From contig CAYOAN010000006.1 in NCBI GenBank assembly GCA_964402065.1, forward strand, positions 105,741 through 169,740: 64,000 nt of DNA, given 5' to 3'. Both the position numbers and the translations under genes were made by a program. This DNA is from an uncultured Chthoniobacter sp. (lineage in GTDB: Bacteria > Verrucomicrobiota > Verrucomicrobiia > Chthoniobacterales > UBA6821). The notes below the pieces were generated by a model. The model ran no database searches and was not told the origin of the DNA. It saw nothing but the letters and a program-made list of their open reading frames with translations. Below, in pieces: positions 5,839 through 51,041 of this stretch (positions are counted from its first letter, which is position 1; the number at the start of each line of letters is the position of its first letter).

Positions 5839-5945
5839 TAGTCAAATTACTTAGAAATGACAATAAATGGACTTGAGCTTAGTTAGGAACAAGCAGCGGT
5901 CTCATCCCATTACGTTATCGTTTAGATAGCGCCGGTCTTCGCCAT
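5839..5945. repeat. Family-B intergenic repeat, one-ended copy, inverted relative to the 16728 copy
   Basis: It starts TAGTCAAATTACTTAGAAATG. The body aligns by eye with the reverse complement of 16741-16856 (..CATCCCATTACGTTATCGTTTAGATAGCGCC..). Confidence 0.6.
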
Positions 5946-16641: not shown

Positions 16642-16727
16642 GAAAAAAAAGGGATGAAATTTTTTTGGAAGCTGGTTCCTATTTCAAAAAAAAATAGGAA
16701 GAAAATTGATCAAGCTGAAAAGAACGG

Positions 16728-16856
16728 AGAGATTTTTAGAAAAGGCAAGGCCGAAGACTGAGCGCTATCTCAACGATAACGTGATGGGATAAGAACGCTG
16801 CTTGTTTCTAAATAAGATCACGTCAATTTATCGCCATTTCTAAGTAATTTGACTAC
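16728..16856. repeat. Family-B intergenic repeat, copy lacking the left terminus
   Basis: TTTTTAGAAAAGGCAAGGCCGAAGAC...GATAACGTGATGGGAT.AGAACGCTGCTTG..TCTAAATAAGATCACGTCAATTTAT....TCTAAGTAATTTGACTAC is nearly identical to 61415-61544. Confidence 0.7.
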
Positions 16857-16882
16857 AGGCTCAGCTAGTTGCTAAGGCTGTT

Positions 16883-36625: not shown

Positions 36626-37192
36626 ATGTTAAATTCTGCAATGAAATCTCTATTTTTTAAAAAAAAGAACGCTTTTTTTTTGCTGTTTGTTTTTATCCCG
36701 TGGCTCTCTTTGCAAGCCGCACAGCAAATCAAAGTGCCTCTAGGCTGTGCGTGGGGAGAAAGTCCTGGGCAATTAGATGAACTGATTCATGCAGGAGGAC
36801 TCACGCTGGTTGGAACAGAGGTGATTCCTTCCGCCCGAAAAAAAGTTGTGACTGTTCGTGGTGTTATTGGTGCCGCATTAAAACAAAATAACTTTATTTT
36901 TCAAAAAGAAGAACTTACTGAAATTGAATACCAGTACGGTGATTCAAGGTGGGATGACAAAAAGCACCAAGAGTTTTTTGATAATTTTCGACGGATGTTC
37001 GAAAACAAATATGGGCCAGGAACACCATTAACAAAAACGGGAACTCTGCAAAGTAGTGTTGGCGGAATCGCCACCTCAATTGTTGGTTATGAATGGGCTC
37101 AATCTTGTTGTGTGTTAGATCTTTTTTACTATAGCGCAGAACGCGGTGCTCAGCGCTATCAAGTGGTAAGCGTGCATTACAAAATGCCGTAG
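36626..37192 (+). CDS. Hypothetical exported protein upstream of rhs
   Basis: 188 aa with a signal-like FFLLFVFIPWLSLQAAQQ. No family recognised. Confidence 0.45.
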   Translation: MLNSAMKSLFFKKKNAFFLLFVFIPWLSLQAAQQIKVPLGCAWGESPGQLDELIHAGGLTLVGTEVIPSARKKVVTVRGVIGAALKQNNFIFQKEELTEIEYQYGDSRWDDKKHQEFFDNFRRMFENKYGPGTPLTKTGTLQSSVGGIATSIVGYEWAQSCCVLDLFYYSAERGAQRYQVVSVHYKMP

Positions 37193-37358: not shown

Positions 37359-40300
37359 ATGCAATACCTGCCGGCACTTTCATCAACCCTCAGAAACTTT
37401 ATGGTACCCCTTCATTTTGTTGCGATTGGATTAATTTCATTTTGGCCCTTTAATCATACCGATTCGATAGGAGAGCAGCCAAAAAAATTTCAAAAGGAGA
37501 ATGTTGTTCAATATAGCCAATCCATTTACGCAATTGATGCTGAGGAGAAAGCTTGGAAAGGGAGTGTGAAAAATAAGAAAGAGTTAGCAGGTGATGTCAT
37601 TGATGCACAGGTTCACCCTATCTTATTTGAAAAAAAACTTGTTGCTCTCTTTGCTGATGCGGAAGGAAAGCCCATTTTTGAAGATGAGTCAGGGAGTTGC
37701 TACGATGAAGATGGAAACGTTAGCATTGATCCAGTCATCAAATCAGCAAAAGCGCGTGCGGTTTTGCAACATACATCAGGAATAGATTTTTCGAGAAAAT
37801 CACCGCTCGCTATGTTAGATGAAAGTCATCAACTGTTATTGTCGGAGACGGACGCCTCGTCCATTCCTGTAGAGTGGCAGTTAAAATATTTTGGTTATGT
37901 TGGAGTAGATCCTGACGCTCCAGCGCCCAATGGGAGCGGACAGACAATTTTTCAATGCTATTTGCAAGGAATAGAACCGGTAGCTCTAGAGCCAATCACG
38001 ATGAGCATCAGTGCAACAGGTCCTTTTCGAGATCCTGCTAACGTAACCTTAGTCGCTTCGATTACTCACCCAGCTAATGTTGAAATAAGTCATATCGATT
38101 TTTTTTATAGAGGGACAAATGCGGCTAACTGCTTGGGGCATGCAACTACAGAACCCTATCAGATTACGACGAATCTTTTTGGGGCTGGATGTTTTGTTAT
38201 TCAGGCTAAAGCTTATGATTCTAATGAATGCGAAGTAGCAACAGCAACAATGTCGATAGATGTTCTTCCTTCTAATCGATACTTTCGAGGGCTGCTACCT
38301 GGGGTTTACGGCATGCATGAGATGAATTATGTTTCCTCTATTGTTGCGCTTGATTTTCAGCATGGTGTCTCATTGGATGGTACGAATAATACTTCCCTAA
38401 CAGATTTTGATCACCTTTATTCAAGTGGCTACCCTTGGTTTTTGAGGACTGCTTCAGACTTAAAAGGGCCGTGCTATCATCTTATCAATGCTAATGGGGC
38501 GTTAGATTATGTACCTGTTAATATGATTCCAACTGTGGGTGGAGTTGCTGTTGGAGATCAACCTCCCATGGTCGCTTTCGGAAGCCAAGCAGGCTTAGGA
38601 GCAACACCTCTCTTTGTTGATCAAGCGTACCATTTTGGCATTGCTGGCGGAGGAGAAAAACCAGAAGCAATAAAAGATTTAAAAATTGAGGTCTATGAGA
38701 GATCTGCATTTGATGCAGGAAATGCAAATGTACCACCAGTTTTTGTTGCTGATTACAAACTTCCTTCCCTCTTAAATAAATCAGACTCGGATGATTTTTC
38801 TGTTAGTAATTTAACTCAAGATTATCACTTACTTACCAACTGGAATGGAAAGATCATTGATTTTGACACGCAGGTCACTTACCAAATTAATGATCCAGAA
38901 AGTACATGGGGACAATCTGGGAAATATAATTTTATCCTCACCCACAAGGCTGCTAATGACTTGTTCTATTATAAAGTCAGCTTTATGGGAGCGGGGTGTA
39001 CAGAGAAGGATGCGGCGCTTTTTGACATGGCAAAAAATAGCTCAAAAACGACATCGGCATATAATATCAGCTACTCTCTTGATTTTGAGAAACCCCTTCC
39101 TTGGAGGTCAGTTTTTATTAACCAACCTCATTTTCAAACCATTCCGCTTCCAAGTGAATATCAAGGAAAGAGTATTGATGAGCTCCTTCATCAGACGCCG
39201 GCAATTAGTGATGCTTTTACAGCAAAAACGCCTGAACAAATCGAAAAAGAGACAGGGTATGATCTGAGGCTGCTCAATCATAGTACCGAGCTTAAAGACC
39301 ATTCTCTCTTGGATAAGTTGGTATCTGACTTAGAAGGAGATCCCATCAAGATAGCGAACTATGTTCTTAATGAAATAGAGCTTACGGACGCTATTGGGCT
39401 TGGTGTAGAGAATGGAGAGGCAAGCGATTTAGATAAGACCGCTATTAATCCTCAAGGAGTCAATCGCGATGCATTGGCAACTTATTTGGAGGGTCAAGGC
39501 TCTCCTATCGAGCAATGCGCCCTACTTATCTACCTCCTACGGAAGGCCGGTTATTCTGCGGCCTATGTTTTTCCTGATCATAATAAGACACTGATGTTTG
39601 ATCAGGAGCTAAGTAAGATACTTAAAATGCAATTTCGGGGAACCATGTCTTGTGTAGGAAACATGCGCGAGCCTGAACTCATACCTGTCAATTATCCCTG
39701 GGTTGTCTTTTTTGACAAAGATCAAAAAAAATGGATCCATCTTTTTCCATGGATTAAAAATATAAAAGTTAAAGAAGGAAAAGACCTTTGGAATTATTTT
39801 CCATCGGGCTACAACACCCCGCGGCAATGGTTGTTAAAATATCTTCTTAATGATGGGAGTGTTCGCAATCCACTTGAAACAAAAGATCCAGCAATTTTAA
39901 GAGAAGATAATGTTGGAACGCTTTTCCCCTTGTATGCAGCAAAACAGCTAGCGTTGCACAATCTTACCATTGACGATGTGGGTATCCAATTCACGCATCA
40001 ACCTTGTTACTATGAGAGTTGGGATGAGTTTCCTCGTCCATGGGCAACCTCCCCTATTTCTAATGGAAACCTAGCTCAAAATTTAGAAGCGGATCAAAAT
40101 ACGAAGCTAAAACCAGAAATTAAAAATCAGTTAGCGGATATTTTTGACACCATTGAAATAACCGTCATTAGTGATAGGAAAAATAATGGGAGTGTTAATT
40201 TAAAGGATCATCCTGGAGATCCTGTTATTCAAACAGGAGTCCTACGTATGGCGAATCTTCATGATCGTGCTCTATTATTGCATCACGAAGTTGAAACTAA

Positions 40301-43300
40301 TCATCACTACAAGATGATCCTTTCTTTGGATCCTTATGATGCAACTCAAGCAGATAGTGAGCATCAAACTAATAGTTTTTATTCAGGAAATAATCCCACT
40401 CCTTCCTCGGATCAACTTTTAAGAGGCAAGCAAGCCATGAGCGTTGATCTCGATGATCGAGACAATAGCATTTTGTATCACATTCTCTACCGACATCATC
40501 AGCAGGTCTTAAAGGGGGTTGATTACAGTAAACAATTTTTCGGAATTGATGAAATGACAACAATTGATGACACGCGACCTTTATTCAAAGGAGACATGGC
40601 TTGTTTATCATTGTTTTATGGAAGGGTTAGCCCTGAGATGATGAATTTTCAAAATCAAAAATTTATACAATTACGGGATGCCCTTAACAATGGTCCAGCC
40701 TTCTTAGAAAATCAAAATGCCATGAAAGGCCAGTATCTAGCAATTGTTGGGCAATCTTATTATCAAATGGTAGGAGAAACGCAACAAATGCTCGAACGAA
40801 TGAACAAATTGCATGCTGTTTCTTATGCAGCGCATGGATTAACTAAATTGTCTCCACTGCGTGATGATCATAATCAGATCGTTCTTACCACTGATTTCTT
40901 GACTGAGAAGGAAGATCTAAACTTGGTATATCCTAATGTTGATATGAGTTTTCAAACGCTGGTTCATGTTAATAATAGCAGCACTCACTTAGAAGCGAGT
41001 AACGCCTCAGGATCCTATATTGATGTTTTAGGGAATTTATTAATTGGAGAAATTTCCGCTGATGAACATCGTGTTATTGATAAACTGTATGGACAAAAGA
41101 ACGCCATTTCTACGGTTAAGTTACTTGATATTGCACAAGGATGGACATCTGAGGTAGGACTAGCCACACACCCAGGAGAAGGAGCAATCGTCTTAACGGC
41201 TAATAATTATCAAGACGAAGGAAAAAAAAGCTATATTGCGAAAAGAACATCGGATCATGTTCCTCTTAAAAAAACGCTCTCTGAATGGGGTGATCTTATT
41301 GGCGGATACTGGTCAAACCAGGTAAAAAGTACACTGCAAGTTTCTTCTTCTGCTGAAAAGAATTTTATCATCATGACCCCTGGTCCCGTCACAGCAAGTG
41401 GTCAAGAAGGCGGGGTGCCATATACCGGTATGGGTGCTATGGTCTTTACACCTCTTAGTGCTGGGGCCTTGATTACTGGAAGAACAACCATCAATGGCGG
41501 TTACGGTGAGCCAACATATCAATTTGAAAATAATGGAGATTCTATCTTTTTACCTCCTACAACAATAGAGACCAGAGTAAAAATACCAGACTATTATAAA
41601 CTTGAGACCAATCCTCCTAGCAACAGCAATATCAGTATTTCAAATCCTCTCAATCCACAAAATAGTCCCTTTGGATATGGAGGACAATACTATCATGATC
41701 CTCGATTTCTCAATCCCTCGACACCTTCCTGGCAAACTCCTTCGCAACCTTCCTGGCAACCTCCTTCACAACCAAGTCCGCCTCCTTCTTCTCCTGCGAA
41801 TCCCACTATAACGGCACCGCCAGCGCCTTCTCCTGCACCACCAACGCCATCACCCACGCCCCCAGTAAGCCAAGAAAAATTCAAAGAGATAGTTAAAAAA
41901 ACCATCTCGGAAAAAGGGAATACAGGTAGTCCCGTCTTTTATGGAAAGCTCAAGAACTTTGTTATGGATCCAGTGAGCGTGGTAACTGGAGAATTTTATG
42001 TCAACGCTGTTGATCTCAAGTTAGCAGGGCCAATGCCTCTTGAAGTTCGCCGTATTTATAGCTCGCAAAGTAGTGTTAATGAAAATCTGGGGCATGGATG
42101 GAGGCTTAGTTATTTTTCCTATCTGGCGCTCTCGAGTGATAGTGAAACAACGCCAACGATCATTAATGCTGCAGAAATGGATGGCTCTGTTATTTCCTAT
42201 CGCTACAACAAAGATCAACAAATTTGGATGCCACTCCCAAGTGATAATCCAACGCTCATCAACGAAAATGATGGTGCTAACCTTATTAGTAAAAATCTTT
42301 TTAACAACCGCATCACTCAAACAACAAGTGATGGCGCTATTGCCTACACTTTATCGAGTGCGGATGGCAGCAAAAGAGTATTTAAGGTTCATCCTGAATT
42401 CACTCACCAACGACCTTATCTTGATTCGTGGAGCGATCATCAAGGTAATTCCTATCAATTTTTCTTTGGTCAAAATAAGCAATCTTCGGATTATGAACAA
42501 CTCATCCGCATTGCTTCAAGCAATGGCAATACAATCCGTTTCAATTACGATAATAATGGTCATATTGTAAAAGCTTTTTCCAGCGATGGACGCTTGCTCA
42601 AATACACCTATGACAGCAATGGCGACCTTGTTCAAGTTACGCTCTCAGATGGGACAAAAATTAACTACAGCTATAAAATTCTCGATCAAGACTCACCTCA
42701 CCTGCTTGTTCAAGAAATAAAACCAGAAGGACGTAGCTTGCAAAATAATTATGACGCACTAGGCCGCGTTATCACTCAATATGCGACAACTGGCGTTAGT
42801 CCAACAGCAACACTGAGTGGCACCTTTAACTATAGCCTCACTGCTACCAACGCTGATAACACCTTTGATGGAACGACGCTGCTTGTGGATGGTGCTGGCA
42901 ATAAAACGACTTACACTATCTCTCATAATCAAATGACAAGCATAGCTTGTCCTGAAAATCGAACGATCACGCAAACGTGGAATGTGAACGAGAGCTCACG
43001 TTCCCTAGCTAGTGCTGTCGATGTTCGAGGGCTCATAACAAGCTATGACTATGATGGGAGTGGGAATGTTATTAGCCGTAGCCTCAAAGGAGACATTACT
43101 GGCAGCGGGGCAAGCGAAACAGCAAAGACGACATCGACCTACAACAGTCTCAATGTTCTAAGTTCGACTATTGACGCTGTTGGAAACATAACAAAGTACA
43201 CTTATAACAACGCATCATTTCCGTACAATCCAACAACTGTTATGACAACAGCCCCTTCGGGACAAACGGTCAATGCGCTTCAAATTGAGTATACAAAGTC

Positions 43301-46300
43301 TGGAGGTGCTTCTGGACTTGTTTCCAGCCTCAATAATAATGGAGCGATCACAACTTATACCTACGATCAACATGGATTTCCAAATTCCATAACGCAAAAA
43401 ACAGGGACGAAAGATCCCGACCTGACAACAACATTAACCTGCAATGCACGAGGAGAAATTATTGCTGCAACAGATGCTCTCGGACAAAAGAAAAAATACT
43501 TCTACGACGGCCTTGGGCGTCCTACTGGAGTGGAGGTTTATGATAAAACAGGAGCTCTCATCGATTGGCACTTTAAATATTATAACTACAATGGAGAAAT
43601 TGAGTGGGAGCAAGGGGCTCGTTTAAACCCTGTTGATTATACCTATTATGATTATGACCGAGCAGGGCATCTTCTGCACAAGGCAACCTACCTTATTGCT
43701 GGAGCTTCTGCTTGGGCAGGAGAACTAGTTATGAACAACAATGTTGCTTTGACCTCTTACAACTATGACGCACAAGGCAATTGTATTTCCATGACCGATC
43801 CTAATGGCAACATAACAACAATGGGCAACTATGATGCATTAGGAAATATGGGATCACGAACGCTTGCAGATGGAACAAAAGAGAGCTTTAGCTATGAGGC
43901 GGGTGGTAACGTCGCGAGCCATACAACTGTTTTGGGAGCAGCAGAAACTTTTACTTACACCTCAACAGGCCTTATAAAATCTGCTTGTCGCGCTGATGGA
44001 AGTGTAACGCAGTACCAGTACGATCTCATGGGGCATCTTGTTAAAGAGCAATCTTCCCAGGGGCCAACCTGCAATATTACTTATAATGGCAATGTCACTA
44101 CAAAAACATTCAATGCCTCTGGAAAGTCCTTAGGGTCTACATCTGAGTCCTATGATGGACGTGGCAATTTATTACAAAAAACAGATCTTGCAGGCAACCA
44201 ATGGAATTACAGTTACGACAATTTGAATCGTCTTAAAACAGAACAAGGCCCACCAACCTCTGGAACTAGTGCCCAACAAAGTGTCACGCACTACTACGCT
44301 CTCAACTTCGAAACACTTCTCAACGGCGCTGGTGAATGGACTAACCGGTCGTTGGATGCGATGGGGCGTTCTCTGATAATGACCAGCTACAACAAAGATG
44401 GGAGCATTGCTCAAACGATCAGTAATCATTACTCGGGAGATCACCAAAGCATAGAGACAACGGTTGGAACCGGCACTAATGCTATTACAACAACGACCTA
44501 CACGGATACGCGAGAACGTCCTCTTACCATTCAAAACAGTGATGGGAAATGTAAAATTTTCACTTACGATCCTAACGGCAACCTCACTTTTGTTAGCGAT
44601 GAAGATGGTCTTATCACCTGCTATAGTTATGACAGCCTTAATCATCTAGCCTCAGAAACAATTCTTCCTGACGGAACCTTCATTGCTTATAAGTATGATG
44701 CTGCTGGCAATCTTCTCACGCGCTCGATGCCGCATGGCCTCAAAGAACAAAACTCTTATAACGCTGCAGGACAAAAAACTTCCTCTGCCTTATTTGGAGG
44801 TGATGAAGCCGTGACTCGCAACTTCGCTTATCAGTATCAAAATGGCCTTCTCTCTTCGATCCAAGATCCGCGAGGCTTCACAACATCGATTGCCTACGAT
44901 GATTGGAAACGACCTGTAAGCCTTGTTTCAAGCGGAGCTAGCCTTCCTGAACAAAATCAAACAACAGGTTACAAATACGATCCGCGAGGATTTCTTGTGG
45001 CTATAGCTCAACACTACAACGATGCCGCTGCGGGGCCATCTACTCTTGTTTCCAGGTCCTACGATGCCTATGGACAACTCACCTCGGAAACTACCTCTCT
45101 CAATAACAGCAATATTTCCTCTTGGAGTCAAAGATGGGACGCAGCAGGAAGAAGAACGGCCCTCAACTGGAACTTAAATCCGCAAAGCAAAGGTCCGCAG
45201 TATACCTTCTCATACAATGCTCTTGGGGAAATGACTAGCTCTCAAAACGGCTCTGGTACTTATTCCTACGACTATAATAACAATGGATTGCTTTTTCAGC
45301 GAACAACACCACATGGTACAATTTCACTCACTCGTGACGAGCGAGGTCGCATTACCGATATTGGAAATAGCATCAGTAACCTAACGATACTTGCTGAACA
45401 CATCGATTGGAAATTGGACAACAGAATTCAGAGTTATAACGTACTTGAAAATAGGATAGGCGTCCCACAGGAATCGCGTAATTATGGATATGCAGGAAGA
45501 AAAGTGACGCAAGAGCCGTTTATGCTGACGAGTTCTTCTGATCCAACAATGCTTCCGAATGGAACTCAGACAGTGCAATATCTTTTTGATGAAACAAATC
45601 TCCTTCAATTGAATTCAGGCAATATCAATGGACTTGGTGTAAGAACAACCCAAATTATCGATTCAAATGCTGCAAACTGTGTTGCTGCTCAAAATAGCCT
45701 TGGACAGGTCACGCAAGCGAACACTTACTCTTTCCGAGCTATTTATGATTGGATGCTTGCCTACGATGCTGCTGGAAATATGAACAAAGCAACGTTGGAA
45801 ACTTGTGTGGATCAAACATTGACTTGGGACAGCTTTAATCGACTTGTTGATTTCAATCAACGAAGCGTATTAGGACATAATTTTAACCCTCAATGGACTT
45901 CTTCCTATGATTGGAAAACTGCTTACGATGGCCTTGGAAGACGAATACAGACTACTTGTGGAAGTGATATGATTAATTACTACTACGATCCAGAAGTGGC
46001 ATTTTTAGAACTCGGTCGCACCATCAATGGAAGTGAAACCTGGAATCTCTACGGACCTGATCGAAGCGGCATCTATGGAGGAGCTCAAGGCATTGGTGGC
46101 CTTGAAACCAGCTACGATCAAAATACTGGAACAGTGAAAAACTGGGTGAATAATTATTTTGGGGATGCACTAGTATGGTATGACGCGGCAAGCCAGTATT
46201 TCTTAAACCATGGCTCTATCAGTTTTGGAGGCTATGGACCGATGCTTGGAAGCAGTACGCCTGAAAATTCCGACCCTCAATGGCGAGGACATTACGTGGA

Positions 46301-47162
46301 TGAAACAGGCCTCTACTACATGGGAGCTCGCTACTACGATCCGATCAACGGAACATTTATTTCACCAGACCCACTTGGCCATAGTTCTAGCCTAAGCCTG
46401 TATGACTATTGCAACGGCGACCCAGTTAATGGCTTGGATCCCGATGGACGGTGTGTGGAGAAAATCAACAATGCTGAAATCAATGTTGGCTACAGTTGGA
46501 ATCAAGCGTGCAACCAGTACGATTCTGATATTGGAGCTCGCATCTTAGCAGGAATACCTGTGAGCATTCTAAGTGGTGATGCATTCACTCACTACACAAC
46601 GCCACAAGAACAAATGAACCAATACGGCTTTATGCCAGCTGCATTTAGTGCAAATGGGATTTTTGCTGATCGTAGTGATATAATCTATATGAGAAGTAAA
46701 GTTGCTGAAGGACTTAACTTCAATGAAGAGAATATCTTTCAAATTCAAAACCCTTCCTATGGACCACTTGATTTAATAAGAGCAGGAGGACAAGAAGCAG
46801 GGGCGATCGATATCACAGCCTTACGAGCTGCTGATATGATTAATACTTCTGGAGGTGGTTCTTTTGTTGCTCACAGTAATGGATCGGCTCTTTTTTACGC
46901 AGCTTCTGCTCTGCTGAGGCCTGAAGTGAAAGCTCATATTGATTACAGAGGCTATGGACCTCAGATTAATATTAATTCCGGAAATGTGCCTCGACTTCAT
47001 AGCTACCATAATATTACCGGGGCTCATGATTTGGTTGGTACCGTGTTAAATCCAAATGCTCATTGGGATCAAATTATTCCTCAGAGTCCATTACATCCAC
47101 TTGATAATCATAGTTTTAAGAAAACTTATGCTTCGGATGTTTCAAACATGATGACGTTATGA
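37359..47162 (+). CDS. Giant Rhs/YD-repeat polymorphic toxin (3267 aa)
   Basis: Many YD repeats (YDALGR, YTYDSNGDL, YDYDGSGNV, YKYDAAGNL ...). Shell-opening motif DPVSVVTGEFYVNAVDLKLAGPMPLEVRRIYSS...LGHGW. Canonical core end YYMGARYYDPINGTFISPDPLG...YDYCNGDPVNGLDPDGR, followed by a distinct C-terminal domain of about 236 aa. Confidence 0.9.
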   Translation: MQYLPALSSTLRNFMVPLHFVAIGLISFWPFNHTDSIGEQPKKFQKENVVQYSQSIYAIDAEEKAWKGSVKNKKELAGDVIDAQVHPILFEKKLVALFADAEGKPIFEDESGSCYDEDGNVSIDPVIKSAKARAVLQHTSGIDFSRKSPLAMLDESHQLLLSETDASSIPVEWQLKYFGYVGVDPDAPAPNGSGQTIFQCYLQGIEPVALEPITMSISATGPFRDPANVTLVASITHPANVEISHIDFFYRGTNAANCLGHATTEPYQITTNLFGAGCFVIQAKAYDSNECEVATATMSIDVLPSNRYFRGLLPGVYGMHEMNYVSSIVALDFQHGVSLDGTNNTSLTDFDHLYSSGYPWFLRTASDLKGPCYHLINANGALDYVPVNMIPTVGGVAVGDQPPMVAFGSQAGLGATPLFVDQAYHFGIAGGGEKPEAIKDLKIEVYERSAFDAGNANVPPVFVADYKLPSLLNKSDSDDFSVSNLTQDYHLLTNWNGKIIDFDTQVTYQINDPESTWGQSGKYNFILTHKAANDLFYYKVSFMGAGCTEKDAALFDMAKNSSKTTSAYNISYSLDFEKPLPWRSVFINQPHFQTIPLPSEYQGKSIDELLHQTPAISDAFTAKTPEQIEKETGYDLRLLNHSTELKDHSLLDKLVSDLEGDPIKIANYVLNEIELTDAIGLGVENGEASDLDKTAINPQGVNRDALATYLEGQGSPIEQCALLIYLLRKAGYSAAYVFPDHNKTLMFDQELSKILKMQFRGTMSCVGNMREPELIPVNYPWVVFFDKDQKKWIHLFPWIKNIKVKEGKDLWNYFPSGYNTPRQWLLKYLLNDGSVRNPLETKDPAILREDNVGTLFPLYAAKQLALHNLTIDDVGIQFTHQPCYYESWDEFPRPWATSPISNGNLAQNLEADQNTKLKPEIKNQLADIFDTIEITVISDRKNNGSVNLKDHPGDPVIQTGVLRMANLHDRALLLHHEVETNHHYKMILSLDPYDATQADSEHQTNSFYSGNNPTPSSDQLLRGKQAMSVDLDDRDNSILYHILYRHHQQVLKGVDYSKQFFGIDEMTTIDDTRPLFKGDMACLSLFYGRVSPEMMNFQNQKFIQLRDALNNGPAFLENQNAMKGQYLAIVGQSYYQMVGETQQMLERMNKLHAVSYAAHGLTKLSPLRDDHNQIVLTTDFLTEKEDLNLVYPNVDMSFQTLVHVNNSSTHLEASNASGSYIDVLGNLLIGEISADEHRVIDKLYGQKNAISTVKLLDIAQGWTSEVGLATHPGEGAIVLTANNYQDEGKKSYIAKRTSDHVPLKKTLSEWGDLIGGYWSNQVKSTLQVSSSAEKNFIIMTPGPVTASGQEGGVPYTGMGAMVFTPLSAGALITGRTTINGGYGEPTYQFENNGDSIFLPPTTIETRVKIPDYYKLETNPPSNSNISISNPLNPQNSPFGYGGQYYHDPRFLNPSTPSWQTPSQPSWQPPSQPSPPPSSPANPTITAPPAPSPAPPTPSPTPPVSQEKFKEIVKKTISEKGNTGSPVFYGKLKNFVMDPVSVVTGEFYVNAVDLKLAGPMPLEVRRIYSSQSSVNENLGHGWRLSYFSYLALSSDSETTPTIINAAEMDGSVISYRYNKDQQIWMPLPSDNPTLINENDGANLISKNLFNNRITQTTSDGAIAYTLSSADGSKRVFKVHPEFTHQRPYLDSWSDHQGNSYQFFFGQNKQSSDYEQLIRIASSNGNTIRFNYDNNGHIVKAFSSDGRLLKYTYDSNGDLVQVTLSDGTKINYSYKILDQDSPHLLVQEIKPEGRSLQNNYDALGRVITQYATTGVSPTATLSGTFNYSLTATNADNTFDGTTLLVDGAGNKTTYTISHNQMTSIACPENRTITQTWNVNESSRSLASAVDVRGLITSYDYDGSGNVISRSLKGDITGSGASETAKTTSTYNSLNVLSSTIDAVGNITKYTYNNASFPYNPTTVMTTAPSGQTVNALQIEYTKSGGASGLVSSLNNNGAITTYTYDQHGFPNSITQKTGTKDPDLTTTLTCNARGEIIAATDALGQKKKYFYDGLGRPTGVEVYDKTGALIDWHFKYYNYNGEIEWEQGARLNPVDYTYYDYDRAGHLLHKATYLIAGASAWAGELVMNNNVALTSYNYDAQGNCISMTDPNGNITTMGNYDALGNMGSRTLADGTKESFSYEAGGNVASHTTVLGAAETFTYTSTGLIKSACRADGSVTQYQYDLMGHLVKEQSSQGPTCNITYNGNVTTKTFNASGKSLGSTSESYDGRGNLLQKTDLAGNQWNYSYDNLNRLKTEQGPPTSGTSAQQSVTHYYALNFETLLNGAGEWTNRSLDAMGRSLIMTSYNKDGSIAQTISNHYSGDHQSIETTVGTGTNAITTTTYTDTRERPLTIQNSDGKCKIFTYDPNGNLTFVSDEDGLITCYSYDSLNHLASETILPDGTFIAYKYDAAGNLLTRSMPHGLKEQNSYNAAGQKTSSALFGGDEAVTRNFAYQYQNGLLSSIQDPRGFTTSIAYDDWKRPVSLVSSGASLPEQNQTTGYKYDPRGFLVAIAQHYNDAAAGPSTLVSRSYDAYGQLTSETTSLNNSNISSWSQRWDAAGRRTALNWNLNPQSKGPQYTFSYNALGEMTSSQNGSGTYSYDYNNNGLLFQRTTPHGTISLTRDERGRITDIGNSISNLTILAEHIDWKLDNRIQSYNVLENRIGVPQESRNYGYAGRKVTQEPFMLTSSSDPTMLPNGTQTVQYLFDETNLLQLNSGNINGLGVRTTQIIDSNAANCVAAQNSLGQVTQANTYSFRAIYDWMLAYDAAGNMNKATLETCVDQTLTWDSFNRLVDFNQRSVLGHNFNPQWTSSYDWKTAYDGLGRRIQTTCGSDMINYYYDPEVAFLELGRTINGSETWNLYGPDRSGIYGGAQGIGGLETSYDQNTGTVKNWVNNYFGDALVWYDAASQYFLNHGSISFGGYGPMLGSSTPENSDPQWRGHYVDETGLYYMGARYYDPINGTFISPDPLGHSSSLSLYDYCNGDPVNGLDPDGRCVEKINNAEINVGYSWNQACNQYDSDIGARILAGIPVSILSGDAFTHYTTPQEQMNQYGFMPAAFSANGIFADRSDIIYMRSKVAEGLNFNEENIFQIQNPSYGPLDLIRAGGQEAGAIDITALRAADMINTSGGGSFVAHSNGSALFYAASALLRPEVKAHIDYRGYGPQININSGNVPRLHSYHNITGAHDLVGTVLNPNAHWDQIIPQSPLHPLDNHSFKKTYASDVSNMMTL
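41724..41771 (+). repeat. In-frame 2 x 24-bp tandem repeat within the Pro-rich linker of the Rhs protein
   Basis: CCTTCCTGGCAAACTCCTTCGCAA / CCTTCCTGGCAACCTCCTTCACAA, encoding PSWQTPSQ / PSWQPPSQ. Confidence 0.85.
41967..46451 (+). other. Rhs/YD-repeat shell region (residues about 1537-3031)
   Basis: Bounded by DPVSVVTGEF (D1537 at 41967) and LDPDGR (D3027 at 46437). Confidence 0.8.
46452..47159 (+). other. C-terminal toxin domain, putative alpha/beta-hydrolase (lipase/esterase-like)
   Basis: It follows the DPDGR core end. Nucleophile-elbow-like FVAHSNGSALF (S3173 at 46875-46877). Candidate acid and base residues are GAHDLVG (D3224) and LDNHSF (H3251). The fold assignment is inference. Confidence 0.45.
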
Positions 47163-47671
47163 TAGTAAGATCGATTATTCTTAGTTTGGCTTTGTTATGC
47201 AGTGGCTGTTCTATCACTAAAAATATCAGTAATCAGCCTCCGTATAATCACTGCATTGGCAAGAAATTTATTCTTAAAGAGGATATGTATGTTTTTAAGT
47301 TCCATGATAGTCCTGATTATTTTATTGCTCCTGAACATAGCGGCATTACAGGATTACCCCCTTATGTAGATAAGAAATATTTAGAAAATGATTATTTTGG
47401 AAAACATAATTATTATCTCACTATTTTAGGCATCGTTCCAAAAGGAAGTATTTTTAATATTATCCGAGTGGTAAGAAGAACAACCTTTGAACTGTCTTAT
47501 GTGATGTATCTAATAGCATTTGACAATCTGCCATCTATCAAAAATGGAATTATTACAACAGAAATACTCAATTTTGATAATCCGCCAGATGCATTGTACT
47601 GGTCCGATCCCCCAATCTTTGAAGCCAAATTTGCAGAGCCATTACCAAGTGATGGAGTTTGGTGGAAATAA
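47159..47671 (+). CDS. Putative immunity protein 1 (lipoprotein-like)
   Basis: Its ATG overlaps the rhs TGA (ATGA at 47159-47162). 170 aa with a signal peptide and lipobox-like LALLCSGCS, which is atypical at position -3. Two paralogues lie downstream. Confidence 0.6.
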   Translation: MIVRSIILSLALLCSGCSITKNISNQPPYNHCIGKKFILKEDMYVFKFHDSPDYFIAPEHSGITGLPPYVDKKYLENDYFGKHNYYLTILGIVPKGSIFNIIRVVRRTTFELSYVMYLIAFDNLPSIKNGIITTEILNFDNPPDALYWSDPPIFEAKFAEPLPSDGVWWK

Positions 47672-47689
47672 AAAAGGCTTTCTAAAAAA

Positions 47690-47808
47690 GGGGTCAGTCC
47701 CTGATATTGCGTATTTTTGTGCCAGTTTATGATATATTTTAGATGCCATGAACTGATACCAAATATCATAGAGTGCCCCCGAAATACGCAATATCAGGGA
47801 CTGACCCC
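47690..47808. mobile_element. Family-A MITE-like palindromic element (119 bp)
   Basis: 27-bp perfect terminal inverted repeats GGGGTCAGTCCCTGATATTGCGTATTT ... AAATACGCAATATCAGGGACTGACCCC. The interior is also partly palindromic (TATGATAT/ATATCATA). It has no coding capacity. Confidence 0.8.
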
Positions 47809-47812
47809 TTCC

Positions 47813-48067
47813 TTTTACGCAGCTTCTGTCTTGCTGAGGCCTGAAGTGAAAGCTCATATTGATTACAGAGGCTATGGACCTCAGATTAATATTAATTCCG
47901 GAAATGTGCCTCGACTTCATAGCTACCACAATATTACCGGCGCTCATGATTTGGTTGGTACCGTATTAAATCCGCATGCTTACTGGGATAGCGTCATTCC
48001 TCAAAGTCCATTACATCCACTCGACAATCATAGTTTTAAGAAAACATATGCTCCTGAAGCTTATTAA
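47813..48067 (+). pseudogene. Truncated copy of the Rhs toxin C-terminus (last ~85 codons), orphan fragment 1
   Basis: FYAASVLLRPEVKAHIDYRGYGPQININSGNVPRLHSYHNITGAHDLVGTVLNPHAYWDSVIPQSPLHPLDNHSFKKTYAPEAY matches rhs residues 3179 onward. Homology begins exactly at the MITE right end. The Ser elbow is missing. Confidence 0.8.
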
Positions 48068-48081
48068 AGAGCAACGCCCTT

Positions 48082-48579
48082 ATGATCATGCGATTTATTA
48101 TTCTTAGTTTGGCTTTGTTATGTAGTGGCTGTTCTATCACCAAAAATATCAGCAATCAGCCTCCCTATAATCAGTGCATTGGTAAGAAATTTATTCTGAA
48201 GGAAGATATGTATATTTTTAAAGATGACGATACCTCTCTATACTCAATCGCCCCTCAAGATGCTGGAATTAATAACCTGCCTCGTTTCATTGATCCCAAG
48301 TATATTGGCAGGCATATACATAGTCTTACAGTTACAACGATCATTCCAAAAGGAAATGTTTTTACTATTATAAAAGTAATCATAAAAAAAACTTTTGAGC
48401 TATCTTACACAGACTATTTAATATCTTTTGACGATTTTCAATTTACTAAAAAAGGTCTTCTTTCAGGTCAAATATTAAACCTAAATAACCCTCCCTACAC
48501 GCCTCATTGGTCCGATCCCCCAATCTTTGAAGCCAAATTTGCAGAGCCATTACCAAGTGATGGAGTTTGGTGGAAATAA
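48082..48579 (+). CDS. Putative immunity protein 2 (paralogue)
   Basis: 165 aa. The first ~47 and last 23 residues are almost identical to immunity protein 1. The central part has diverged. Confidence 0.6.
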   Translation: MIMRFIILSLALLCSGCSITKNISNQPPYNQCIGKKFILKEDMYIFKDDDTSLYSIAPQDAGINNLPRFIDPKYIGRHIHSLTVTTIIPKGNVFTIIKVIIKKTFELSYTDYLISFDDFQFTKKGLLSGQILNLNNPPYTPHWSDPPIFEAKFAEPLPSDGVWWK

Positions 48580-48597
48580 AAAAGGCTTTCTAAAAAA

Positions 48598-48716
48598 GGG
48601 GTCAGTCCCTGATATTGCGTATTTTTGTGCCAGTTTATGATATATTTTAGATGCCATGAACTGATACCAAATATCATAGAGTGCCCCCGAAATACGCAAT
48701 ATCAGGGACTGACCCC
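48598..48716. mobile_element. Family-A MITE-like palindromic element (119 bp), second full copy
   Basis: Same TIRs and interior as 47690-47808. A short tandem duplication of the end sequence (CTGACCCCTTCC TCTGACCCCTTCC) follows at 48708-48733. Confidence 0.8.
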
Positions 48717-48733
48717 TTCCTCTGACCCCTTCC

Positions 48734-49003
48734 TTTTACGCAGCTTCTGTCTTGCTGAGGCCTGAAGTGAAAGCTCATATTGATTACAGAGGCTATGGAC
48801 CTCAGATTAATATTAATTCCGGAAATGTGCCTCGACTTCATAGCTACCACAATATTACCGGTGCTCATGATTTGGTTGGTACCGTGTTAAATCCAAATGC
48901 TCATTGGGATCGAGTGATACCTCAAAGTCCATTACATCCACTCGATAATCACAGTTTTAAGAAAACTTATGCTCCAGATGTTTTAAAAATGATGACCTTA
49001 TGA
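48734..49003 (+). pseudogene. Truncated copy of the Rhs toxin C-terminus, orphan fragment 2
   Basis: ..LLRPEVKAHIDYRGYGPQININSGNVPRLHSYHNITGAHDLVGTVLNPNAHWDRVIPQSPLHPLDNHSFKKTYAPDVLKMMTL. It has the same breakpoint as fragment 1 and keeps the ATGA overlap with the next immunity gene. Confidence 0.8.
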
Positions 49004-49512
49004 TAGCAAGATTGATTATTCTTAGTTTGGCTTTGGCATGTAGTGGCTGTTCTATCACCAAAAATATCAGCAATCAGCCTCCGTATAATCAGTGCATTGG
49101 CAAGAAATTTATTCTTAAAGAGGATATGTATATTTTTAAATTTCATGGCAGCTTTCAAGGTGCTATAGCAAGGCCTAATAACGGAATGATGGGATTACCT
49201 CGCTATGTAAATAAGAAATATTTAGAGGATGATCATTTTGGAAAAAATAATCATTACCTTACTATTTTAGGCATCGTTCCAAAAGGGAGTATTTTTACCA
49301 TTATAACAGTTATTAATAGACGAACCTTTGAGGGTGCTTATGTCGATTTTCTAATAGATTTTGATGACTTCCCTATTACAAAAAAAGGATTGTTATCAAT
49401 AGATATATGCAATCTTAAAAACCCTCCCTACACGCCTCATTGGTCCGATCCCCCAATCTTTGAAGCCAAATTTGCAGAGCCATTACCAAGTGATGGAGTT
49501 TGGTGGAAATAG
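49000..49512 (+). CDS. Putative immunity protein 3 (paralogue, mosaic of 1 and 2)
   Basis: 170 aa. It shares KKYLE.D.FGK.N.YLTILGIVPKGSIF with protein 1, and FDDF..TKKGLLS / NPPYTPHWSDPP with protein 2. Confidence 0.6.
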   Translation: MIARLIILSLALACSGCSITKNISNQPPYNQCIGKKFILKEDMYIFKFHGSFQGAIARPNNGMMGLPRYVNKKYLEDDHFGKNNHYLTILGIVPKGSIFTIITVINRRTFEGAYVDFLIDFDDFPITKKGLLSIDICNLKNPPYTPHWSDPPIFEAKFAEPLPSDGVWWK

Positions 49513-49517
49513 AAAAA

Positions 49518-49791
49518 GGGTCAGTACTAGCTAATTCATGAGCAGAGCGATGCATTGCAGGAGAGAGCTCTTTGCTACTCGAGAAAGAAAAAGGCTTTCC
49601 AACTAGTTCTACAATCAAAACCAAACTCAGCAACCTTTACTTGAAGCTAGAAGAAAGATGCTTATTTTCATCAAATGCTCTGCTCCAGCTCTAGAAAAAC
49701 CCAGCCTCTGAGCCAGATTCAAAAAACTAATGAACTGGCACCAAATATCATAGACTGGCACCAAAATACGCAATATCAGGGACTGACCCCT
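49518..49791. mobile_element. Family-A element, long/degenerate copy
   Basis: Degenerate left end GGGTCAGTACTAG at 49518. Intact right arm ATGAACTGGCACCAAATATCATAGACTGGCACCAAAATACGCAATATCAGGGACTGACCCC ends at 49791. About 200 bp of unrelated sequence lies between them. Confidence 0.55.
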
Positions 49792-49798
49792 TTGCACT

Positions 49799-50206
49799 CT
49801 ATTGAATATTCACAATAAAGGTGACAATTTTTTGGAGTGGAAAAGAACGGTCAGGGCCTGTTTGCAGAAGAGCAAATGTTATCTGGCCACTGTTAGCTGC
49901 AGTAAAAACATCCGATCTCACCGTGCCTGTGTAGTTTTGCATAGCAGCTTCTGCATCCTTTGATAAAAGTGCAGCAGAAGGATCGTTGGCTAGTATTGCT
50001 GAGTCAGCAAAAGCAATATTTATCGGCCAGAACATCCAACTTCCTGAAGAGCTGCTCTTCAATAAAAAAGTAAGCGTGTCTCCCTTGTTAACGAAGATGG
50101 GAGCTGCTGCATCAGCTTCGGTGAATGTCTTGCTTTCAGCGTGCAAGGCAGAAGGAAGGAAGGCTACACAAAATGAAAAAAAGAGAGAAAGGAGCGTTGA
50201 TTTCAT
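49799..50206 (-). CDS. Hypothetical exported protein
   Basis: The start is taken at MKSTLLSLFFSFCVAFLPSALHA (M24 of the track ORF). No family recognised. Confidence 0.45.
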   Translation of the reverse strand: MKSTLLSLFFSFCVAFLPSALHAESKTFTEADAAAPIFVNKGDTLTFLLKSSSSGSWMFWPINIAFADSAILANDPSAALLSKDAEAAMQNYTGTVRSDVFTAANSGQITFALLQTGPDRSFPLQKIVTFIVNIQ

Positions 50207-50243
50207 AACTACGAAGCCTCTATCAAGTAAAAATTTTGTCAAA

Positions 50244-51041
50244 CTAAAACACGAAAGGGATTCCTTCATGAGCAAATCCCTCTTTTTGCTTTGAAAGATA
50301 GTGGGCGCCTAGCTTTTCAAAGCCTTTTTCTTCACGAAAAGTTTTGAGAAACTGGTTTATTTGATTTCTTAACTCTATGTCAGACTGACGGAGGCCAATG
50401 GCCCAAGGTTCTTGCTGCAGAGAAGAAAGCAAGGCTCTTGTTTGAAGGGGATGTTCTTCATGGTGGTTCCAGATGCTCATTTCATCGTAGAGAAATGCAT
50501 CTACTTTTTTTTGGAGGACTTCCAGAACCGCAGCAGCTTCCTGATCGAAGACAATGATGCTAGCTTCTGACAAATTTTTTTGCGCCCACAATTGGCCTGT
50601 GGTTCCTTGGCGTACAGCTATCTTTTTGCTGATGTGATTTAAGTCTTGGATGTTCTTGATGTTAGCGTCTTGTGGGACGAGAGCGCCAAGACCAATGGTC
50701 AAGTAGGGATCAGAAAAAGCAATGCTCTTCCGCCGTTCTGGTGTGTCTGTCATCGAAGAAATAACAAGGTCGATTTTTCCTGTTTGGAGCGAAGGGAGTA
50801 GTCCAACAAAAGGAATGTTTTCGATTTTTAAGGGGCGATGCAAGTAATCGCTTAAAGCCCGCGCTATTGAAACGCTGATTCCATCAGGTTCGCCACGTTC
50901 ATTGATCATTTCAAATGGGGGATACGAAAGATCCATGCCGACGCGTAGTGGCATTTCCTGGGGCGGGCGATGACAGCCTGTCAAAAATAGAAAAGCAAGA
51001 ATAGCAGTAAAACGAAGGCAATAGCTAATAAGCAAAGACAT
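50244..51041 (-). CDS. Amino-acid ABC transporter substrate-binding lipoprotein (SBP family 3)
   Basis: Lipobox FLFLTGC. GMDLSYPPFE, IDLVISSMTDTPERRKSIAFSDPY. The start is taken at M24 of the track ORF. Confidence 0.85.
   Translation of the reverse strand: MSLLISYCLRFTAILAFLFLTGCHRPPQEMPLRVGMDLSYPPFEMINERGEPDGISVSIARALSDYLHRPLKIENIPFVGLLPSLQTGKIDLVISSMTDTPERRKSIAFSDPYLTIGLGALVPQDANIKNIQDLNHISKKIAVRQGTTGQLWAQKNLSEASIIVFDQEAAAVLEVLQKKVDAFLYDEMSIWNHHEEHPLQTRALLSSLQQEPWAIGLRQSDIELRNQINQFLKTFREEKGFEKLGAHYLSKQKEGFAHEGIPFVF

Follow-up and report, generated by a model that had tools for sequence, protein, structure and literature searches.

A 64,000-nt stretch of contig CAYOAN010000006.1, from an uncultured Chthoniobacter sp. 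and called here the window (the whole stretch that was analysed), contains an Rhs polymorphic-toxin locus with an orphan-immunity array, in which two truncated toxin genes (stubs), each followed by a full immunity gene, stand behind copies of a small hairpin element. The locus is of a fairly ordinary kind, with an unusual junction, at which the complete end of the element adjoins a codon inside the toxin domain. The array is likely to hold displaced alleles, with an element junction that was made once and then copied by recombination between conserved blocks. The anatomy of the locus, as directly observed, is given below.

37359-47162, plus strand: rhs gene, 3267 amino acids (aa), from the list of open reading frames (ORFs) and Pfam
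46452-47162, plus strand: toxin domain, C-terminal in Rhs, 236 aa
47159-47671, plus strand: immunity gene 1 (imm1), 170 aa, with ATGA coupling to rhs
47688-47814, no strand: hairpin element copy 1, 123 nt plus terminal CCTT, both ends complete
47813-48067, plus strand: toxin stub 1, 84 codons, from F3179 to near the toxin end
48082-48579, plus strand: immunity paralogue 2 (imm2), 165 aa
48596-48735, no strand: hairpin element copy 2, of the same sequence as copy 1, with a 13-bp tandem duplication
48734-49003, plus strand: toxin stub 2, 89 codons, with ATGA overlap with imm3
49000-49512, plus strand: immunity paralogue 3 (imm3), 170 aa
49513-49793, no strand: closing element, left end degenerate, right end genuine

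Each of the two units of the array opens with a hairpin element, which is followed by the final 84-89 codons of the toxin and then by a complete immunity paralogue. The unit of about 908 bp that a first-pass annotation of this DNA had reported twice was recovered, the element copies at 47688-47810 and 48596-48718 being 100% identical and 908 nt apart; the element size of 119 bp given there holds when counted from GGGG to CCCC, and the full element is 123 nt long. In the repeat finding, the toxin tails form a three-copy direct repeat (46893-47192, 47813-48112 and 48734-49033; 82-94% identity), and the immunity genes also form three-copy direct repeat families. The alignment of the three units agrees with the earlier description in several respects: the homology to rhs starts in both stubs at the same nucleotide (TTTTACGCAGCTTCTG, position 46893, F3179); the residue Ser3173 (codon 46875-46877) lies six codons upstream of this point; the tails differ as NPNAHWDQII / NPHAYWDSVI / NPNAHWDRVI and have differing C-termini; and stub 2 overlaps imm3 by ATGA, the gap between stub 1 and imm2 being 14 nt. 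The claim that a degenerate or long copy of the same element closes the array stands for the right end, where a genuine terminus was found, and less so for the rest, the left end being degenerate (AAAAAGGGTCAGTAC, 13/15 match) and the interior of about 175 nt unrelated to other copies. The right end of the closing element (49703-49793) is 94.5% identical to 21084-21174 and has the orientation of the right ends of copies 1 and 2; the repeat finding likewise placed a recurrence of the element right end at 49730-49792, with 90% identity. Directly beyond the closing element comes the stop codon of the next ORF, which is on the minus strand (49799-50275); the small ORFs within the element have no Pfam match.

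Both element/stub junctions are identical and lie at the complete terminus of the hairpin element, with an ambiguity of no more than 2 nt; the same junction was therefore formed once and then copied by recombination. Copy 1 is flanked on the left by 16 nt of the imm1 3' flank and on the right by toxin codon 3179, and unit 2 has a 13-bp tandem duplication (CTGACCCCTTCCT twice, at 48709-48734) that spans the junction. As we infer the order of events, C-terminal displacement would have stacked earlier or alternative alleles one behind another, an element of the family would have lain beside the locus at its 3' end, and a displacement or duplication would have joined the intact right end of the element, 16 nt after the immunity stop, to codon 3179 of the resident toxin. 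The junction, having arisen once, would then have passed to the second unit through homologous recombination, or through gene conversion, between two conserved blocks: one runs from the final ~90 nt of the immunity gene through the element and into the stub for ~130-165 nt, and the other covers the opening ~140 nt of the immunity gene. Such blocks would be held near-identical within the genome, the toxin 3' end and the immunity core staying diverse. The route to the junction may have been illegitimate joining at a breakage-prone element end, two insertions followed by an inter-element recombination that deleted the orphan 5' part, or an element-mediated duplication between sister chromosomes.

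That the triplication was made by the assembler, with strain variants of the metagenome mis-joined, is extremely improbable. The source assembly is indeed metagenome-derived, and a near-identical block of about 350 nt, longer than typical k-mers, recurs in the array. However, the exact-sequence lookup of imm1 led to a contig from a different assembly, L001 (ENA ERZ4216102, 53 kb; also metagenome-derived, with a coverage of only about 4x), in which 14 kb of sequence differ from the window at 6 single-nucleotide polymorphisms (SNPs) and the same array of three units recurs, so that two independent, SNP-distinct assemblies agree on order and copy number. The three immunity proteins are 64-71% identical to one another and are therefore not collapsed or expanded copies of one gene; unique sequence lies beside each, and it is because the units differ strongly in the immunity-gene centres that an assembler-made triplication is very unlikely. 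By our own reasoning, a single path through the repeat uses all segments, and a chimera of strain variants would not yield identical element/stub junctions. The triplication is thus very unlikely to be an artefact, with three as the probable copy number. The sole structural difference between L001 and the window is the 13-bp duplication, present at both junctions in L001 (10643-10655). This difference in CTGACCCCTTCCT may reflect gene conversion among the repeats in the population, or assembly ambiguity; if it is real, the repeats would therefore still be exchanging.

The identity between the units, as directly observed by sliding comparison, is strongly mosaic:

Stub, opening ~130 nt: 95-100%
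Toxin, 3' end: 65-90%
Immunity gene, opening ~140 nt: 90-98%
Immunity gene, core: 40-70%
Immunity gene, final ~90 nt: 88-100%
Hairpin element, copy 1 against copy 2: 100%

The allele relationships were followed at the codon level. In its first variable region imm2 has 87% identity to the relative L002 and 84% to L016, as against 56-57% to imm1 and imm3, with saturated synonymous divergence (dS), and in its second variable region imm1 has 86% identity to L002 as against 67% to its paralogues. The conserved ends of the immunity genes behave the other way round: imm2 and imm3 are 100% identical over the last 28 codons, and likeness is greater among the copies of the window than across genomes (75-80%). 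The variable cores thus match other genomes and the flanks match the neighbours, which makes the cores old allele classes set in locally homogenised flanks. The differences between the stubs are mostly synonymous (codons 45-80; proportion of synonymous differences, pS, 0.21-0.41; of nonsynonymous ones, pN, 0.03-0.07), and the substitutions therefore accumulated under purifying selection, which suggests from the codon pattern that the stubs were once working alleles. The two outer units are more alike than either is to the middle one.

These relationships bear on an origin wholly in place, by insertion of the element at one orphan, unequal crossing-over of one unit and subsequent divergence. 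The sameness of the junction in both units and the 100% identity of the element copies and their flanks would follow from it directly, and the variation of the 13-bp duplication between assemblies, if exchange among the repeats is ongoing, would also fit. One point in its favour weighs at the same time against displaced alleles: all three tails share genome-specific residues (KAHIDYRGY…PRLHSYHNITGAHDLVGTV) that occur in no other genome's toxin and that, taken alone, would fit in-situ duplication as well as homogenisation by gene conversion. Also against displaced alleles, no strain was found with imm2 or imm3 beside an intact toxin, so that displacement is something that we infer. Nevertheless, an origin in place is unlikely, since the divergence along the unit is very uneven, from 100% to 40%, the immunity variable regions are closer to alleles of other genomes and dS to the neighbours is saturated, mostly synonymous differences are unexpected for dead copies decaying where they lie, and the likeness of the outer units is not the simplest outcome of one unequal crossover. 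Of the earlier proposal of disruption by a miniature inverted-repeat transposable element (MITE) followed by unequal crossing-over, there remain the junction at the element terminus and its copying by recombination; duplication alone fails on the immunity-core alleles.

The Rhs protein itself matches the Pfam models RHS_repeat PF05593 (9 stretches, E = 5.6e-60) and DUF6531 (E = 2e-15). It consists of an unannotated N-terminal region of about 1500 aa, DUF6531, an RHS/YD-repeat shell, the core end and the C-terminal toxin, the core-end motif being of the DPxGL type (…YDPINGTFISPDPLG…YCNGDPVNGLDPDGR) and followed by the 236-aa variable domain. Pfam found no match to Rhs residues 1-1514 even at E<=1. 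The first ~1500 residues (37359-41900) and the 188-aa ORF upstream (36626-37192) have no Pfam or NCBIfam match, and a comparable small ORF (140-141 aa) was seen upstream of the rhs gene in the relatives L012-L016. The surroundings of rhs in the window are housekeeping genes, with no PAAR, VgrG or other delivery markers seen around it.

The toxin domain has no Pfam match and no sequence match in PDB at E<=10. Its close homologues are six only, and a profile search over 1.84 billion representatives returned 105 remote relatives, many of them C-terminal in Rhs proteins of 1000-3500 aa; ten of these, when checked, likewise had no Pfam toxin domain, and a word-indexed homologue search with a broad profile gave almost no additional ones. 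Two residues, Ser142 (= Ser3173, in the motif AHSNG or AHSQG) and Asp193 (= Asp3224), are invariant in a diverse alignment of 24 members, and N219-H220 (His3251) is invariant among the close members. AlphaFold2 gave a predicted local distance difference test score (pLDDT) of 41 on the alignment of 6 sequences, and a good model (pLDDT 95.4, predicted template modelling score 0.92) only after the remote relatives from the profile search were added; in this model AHS3173NG sits between the strand 136-141 and the helix 144-152. The top PDB matches of the model in Foldseek were all minimal alpha/beta hydrolases (cutinases, B. subtilis LipA, dienelactone hydrolase and PETases; probability ~1.0). The domain is accordingly predicted, from the model, to be a minimal alpha/beta hydrolase, esterase- or lipase-like, with the candidate triad Ser3173, Asp3224 and His3251, in keeping with the putative Ser/Asp/His enzyme of the first-pass annotation. 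It would represent an unannotated, Rhs-borne family of predicted alpha/beta hydrolases, with about 105 representative clusters and no Pfam model.

Immunity homologues number 32, and each of them adjoins a toxin of the same family wherever the context was read. No Pfam match was found for the immunity proteins, and the search of the GTDB representative genomes with this family found no relatives, so that the source species is absent from that set. The immunity proteins have a signal sequence and a conserved Cys (LLCSGC), by which they are probably lipoproteins that face the periplasm. The toxin would therefore act in the cell envelope, because its immunity protein is a probable lipoprotein, and the analogy with Tle/Tli pairs suggests the same target. 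The position of imm1 and its ATGA coupling to rhs are as expected for a putative immunity gene that neutralises the cognate toxin. The immunity reading frames are intact and under purifying selection, the nonsynonymous divergence (dN) being well below dS in the conserved segments, and imm2 and imm3 would most likely protect the cell from toxin variants of related strains. Some observations run counter to this picture of an exported envelope toxin with lipoprotein immunity: the Foldseek matches have weak E-values of about 1e-3 and TM values of 0.35-0.48, the lipobox is non-canonical, with the Cys at position -3, and no genes of a type VI secretion system (T6SS) or of other dedicated export are among the annotated genes of the 64-kb window.

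The two window stubs, with open frames of 84 and 89 codons, cover toxin residues 148-236 of 236, and no match to the Rhs core was found in either. Stub 2 is 93% identical to the rhs tail in protein, and stub 1 ends in APEAY, like toxins from other genomes. Both lack the predicted nucleophile and keep the predicted Asp and His, as had been claimed from their start after Ser3173, and three core strands are missing as well; because everything through codon 3178, including this nucleophile, is lost, the stubs should be inert, judging by the model. The frame of unit 1 is open backwards for about 32 codons into the hairpin element, to TTG (47717-48067), and stub 1 could be translated from within the element. 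In unit 2 the frame into the element is shifted by the 13-bp duplication, so that there is no conserved element-stub fusion.

Instead of relics, the stubs might be a working reservoir, in which the first ~130 nt would serve as an intradomain handle and rhs would swap its last ~45 codons together with the immunity gene. In their 5' part the stubs are 95-100% identical to rhs, and it is the 3' part and the immunity cores that vary; the stub frames are intact and bear the mark of purifying selection; the residues that vary (201-209 and the C-terminus) lie near the predicted His loop; and recombination between rhs and orphans has been demonstrated in Salmonella (Koskiniemi 2014, as cited in PMC5361080). 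This reading is nonetheless improbable: only a few residues separate the tails, L001 shows no fusion of rhs with stub 1 or stub 2, the stubs of the relatives have assorted breakpoints, as accidental relics would, and any such swap would also delete an immunity gene. Similarly, a half-cassette switch can be conceived, in which the module of stub, immunity gene and hairpin would let rhs recombine inside the toxin domain, exchanging the Asp/His loops and the immunity gene. The exchanged part would plausibly be the surface recognised by the immunity protein, and the hairpin would supply breaks or stalled forks through nicking by a Y1 transposase like the REP-associated tyrosine transposases (RAYT; REP, repetitive extragenic palindromic) or through its 48-bp stem. 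If true, it would amount to a sub-domain switching of toxin specificity coupled to a mobile element; it is rather improbable, and element-driven cassette switching found no positive evidence in this analysis.

The context of the toxin and immunity homologues was read in 20 further loci. Most of them (L012-17, L024-28) have one rhs with a toxin of the same family and one immunity gene. The classical orphan form occurs in L002 and L021, where 15 Rhs core residues (YCNGDPVNGLDPDGR), a complete toxin and an immunity gene lie downstream of another gene. The same 15-residue core head is also on the orphans of L003-5, which continue with the first 72 toxin residues and are then cut. In L022 the stub begins from about toxin residue 70, with no element. 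In L018 the order is toxin, immunity gene, a stub of a divergent subfamily that begins from residue ~131 right after the immunity stop, and a divergent immunity gene, again with no element; its start is ~17 codons further upstream than that of the window stubs (~131 vs 148). The element is therefore not required for stub formation. Intact alternative toxins without an element at the junction, which the first-pass annotation had named as contrary to its reading, are in this way seen in related genomes and count in part against that reading. The spectrum of single pairs, orphans and varied stubs matches the displacement model described for rhs and for Vibrio T6SS clusters, in which an incoming module takes the place of the effector through homology-facilitated illegitimate recombination and the cell retains the old immunity gene, in some cases along with the effector's 3' end (PMC5361080). 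One homologue carries the name Verrucomicrobiota and, taken with the element copies in genomes of Chthoniobacterales described below, suggests the source lineage.

Some of these loci carry mobile genes of other kinds. In L003 (5548-7408) the orphan is directly followed, on the opposite strand, by an IS256-type transposase gene (Transposase_mut), and in L003, L004 and L005 the orphan fragment directly follows a block of integrase, primase and helix-turn-helix genes, so that the toxin cassette also travels on or beside an integrative element. In L025 (1880-2173) a fragment of the rhs core (core residues 3-91) lies downstream of a complete toxin-immunity pair, an orphan type that starts deep in the core.

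The hairpin element has 48-nt inverted arms that are 88% complementary, and its RNA fold has an energy of -71.8 kcal/mol (z = -11.9 vs shuffles). It ends in GGGGTCAG; the termini read AAAGGGGTCAGTCCC, and the family repeat is also written GGGGTCAGTCCCTGATATT. The end probably extends by four bases, CCTT (47811-47814), which also flank the copy in an unrelated context at 61300-61303. The 27-nt terminus has 8 matches in the 64-kb window vs 0 expected, and outside the array two copies of the family were delimited in the window:

21084-21174, plus strand: one-ended copy, upstream of an hldE-like gene
61300-61593, no strand: two-ended copy, between bioF and purH, with a second repeat family nested inside

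In the GTDB genomes the terminus has six matches, about four of them no more than chance; the three in metagenome-assembled genomes (MAGs) of Chthoniobacterales are genuine; the family copies in these MAGs are 92-95% identical, and no autonomous element was recovered from them. In the JGI metagenomes, the terminus led to a single small, unrelated-looking element, L019. In L002, L016 and L021 a family element lies just 3' of the last immunity gene, as the closing element does in the window. No direct repeat that could be a target-site duplication was found around 47688-47814, 61300-61593 or the L019 copy, the array copies being possibly rearranged.

A 349-aa Y1_Tnp gene was found ~800 nt downstream of the homologous rhs-immunity pair in L016 (11176-12775) and L017 (3380-4625), with three inverted repeats on each side, whose invariant core GGGGTCAG(T/C)C is common to the window element; fragments of the Y1 gene follow the locus in L012/L013 (13488-13669) and L015 (10612-10793). 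Against NCBIfam, the best match of the L016 ORF is to REP-associated tyrosine transposase (E = 1.5e-17), and Pfam Y1_Tnp passes. The presence of a Y1 gene with inverted GGGGTCAG repeats beside the rhs-immunity locus in several metagenome contigs points to a possible source of the hairpin elements. The label of MITE given to the element earlier suits it in part: it is short and non-coding, with terminal inverted repeats and many copies, and on the other side are the lack of a target-site duplication and the Y1 gene in a relative. As a lead only, the element may be closer to REP doublets forming hairpins (REPINs) than to a DDE-type MITE; the family is abundant and non-autonomous, and is probably mobilised by a RAYT-like Y1 transposase. 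Weighing against this, the RAYT-type match of L016 reaches 63.9 bits, below the NCBIfam cut-off of 80, the similarity between the window element and the repeats flanking Y1 is limited to ~10-20 nt, and tblastn of the window with the Y1 transposase found none. A tag GTAG or CGTC, which serves as the REP criterion at one REP end (PMC3733652), is absent at the element ends. Two other affiliations were tried and rejected. For IS608-type targeting, TTAC is present at the junction, but on the wrong side of the element end; for an integron cassette with attC, no integrase was found among the annotated window ORFs, and the termini are without RYYYAAC/GTTRRRY cores.

The hairpins could also be modules kept by selection, acting as terminators, mRNA-stabilising hairpins, immunity-only promoters or attC-like cassette sites. 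The element is close in size to integron attC sites and REP elements. Its hairpin is very stable and stands 16 nt behind the stop codon of each immunity gene, with a T-rich stretch after it, and it could still work as a transcript terminator or processing site. However, the proposal of the first-pass annotation that the palindromes are promoter or terminator modules was not borne out: the consensus promoter and terminator scans gave no site inside the elements, with counts not above the shuffle controls, and the Rfam scan in and around the elements had no match. Other genomes contain the same family, which in the window also occupies intergenic places unrelated to the array (21084; 61300), neither an integrase nor GTTRRRY core sites were found, and the arrays of the relatives L018 and L022 are without the element. 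Such a role as a selected module is thus very improbable, and the element is most likely a passenger or breakage point and not a regulatory module.

Among the known systems, the orphan arrays of Rhs and CdiA (Poole 2011, PMC3150448) are like the locus in having a full rhs with an overlapping immunity gene, followed by promoter-less toxin fragments with immunity genes. They differ in that the window orphans keep no Rhs core and start after the predicted nucleophile inside the toxin domain, so that they cannot restore a functional toxin by core recombination, and in that the two window junctions are the same, each at the terminus of a repeat element. The combination by which a classical orphan is recognised, a core piece or VENN with a complete toxin, is absent from the window stubs and present in L002 and L021. 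The contrast with classical core-retaining arrays is smaller than the first-pass annotation had it, since truncated effector remnants beside orphan immunity genes are on record (PMC5361080), orphans disrupted by insertion sequences and fragments without the conserved motif have been described in Rhs and contact-dependent growth inhibition systems (PMC3150448), and L002 and L021 are classical in the same family. Displacement of the C-terminus in rhs is itself on record (Jackson 2009, as cited in PMC5361080).

The T6SS orphan arrays of Vibrio cholerae (Kirchberger 2017, PMC5361080) share with the window the keeping of old immunity genes whose alleles match those of other strains and not of the neighbours, as was found here for the variable regions of imm2 and imm1. 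The differences are the Rhs carrier, an uncultured and probably Verrucomicrobiota host, the absence of visible T6SS genes, the single toxin family and the hairpin at the junction. In the EsaG and TipC arrays (Garrett 2022, PMC9484751), homology blocks drive recombination, with expansion, loss and mosaics of tandem immunity paralogues, and there are likewise conserved blocks at the start and end of the gene and between genes, with a variable centre; those arrays consist of immunity genes only and belong to the type VII secretion systems of Firmicutes, whereas the repeat here also has a toxin stub and a mobile element. With REPINs, RAYTs and bacterial MITEs (Bertels & Rainey 2011, PMC3116915; PMC3337134) the element shares the form of a short intergenic hairpin of inverted repeats in many copies, the lack of a visible target-site duplication and a Y1 gene, in a relative, flanked by inverted repeats with the same core. 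It differs in the long 48-nt arms with two or three sub-repeats, in the lack of the GTAG/CGTC tag, and in that the Y1 gene is found only in a relative and scores below the cut-off.

Another comparison is offered by the Tle/Tli pairs, which are T6SS lipase effectors with periplasmic lipoprotein immunity, the immunity genes often being multicopy. The window pair is like them in its predicted Ser-Asp-His alpha/beta hydrolase and probable lipoprotein immunity protein, and unlike them in that the domain, for which Pfam gives no match, belongs by sequence to no Tle family and is carried as a fusion on an Rhs protein.

This locus widens the known range of orphan-immunity arrays and of C-terminal displacement to include an uncultured lineage, probably of Verrucomicrobiota/Chthoniobacterales. 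With the probable displacement origin, it is a clean example of an illegitimate displacement junction that coincides with the end of an intact small hairpin element, which hints that such elements can set module boundaries in polymorphic-toxin loci, and its homogenised blocks around old variable cores make a compact case for the diversity of immunity repertoires. Current models are not overturned by it; its value lies in a new toxin-immunity family and a possible REPIN-like element family, with no new principle.

Several minor observations concern the rest of the window. Only 1-5 nt separate the bioF start codon from the end of the GGGGTCAG element that lies between this gene and purH (61296-61303), and the ribosome-binding site or promoter of bioF therefore lies within the element or is read through it. 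A second palindromic repeat family, unrelated to the first, has the ends TGTAGTCAAATTACTTAGA…TCTAAGTAATTTGACTACA and occurs at 61390-61545, 16719-16857, 5839-5930 and 27395-27439, and at 65-170 of L010; its copy 61390-61545 is nested in the GGGGTCAG element between bioF and purH, and other copies are 84-92% identical, one being in a Chthoniobacterales MAG. The genome appears to be rich in small non-autonomous elements. At 24553-26133, on the minus strand, a 526-aa ORF matches the IpgD family of inositol-phosphate phosphatase virulence effectors (E = 1.7e-8), and this match hints that the organism interacts with eukaryotic cells.

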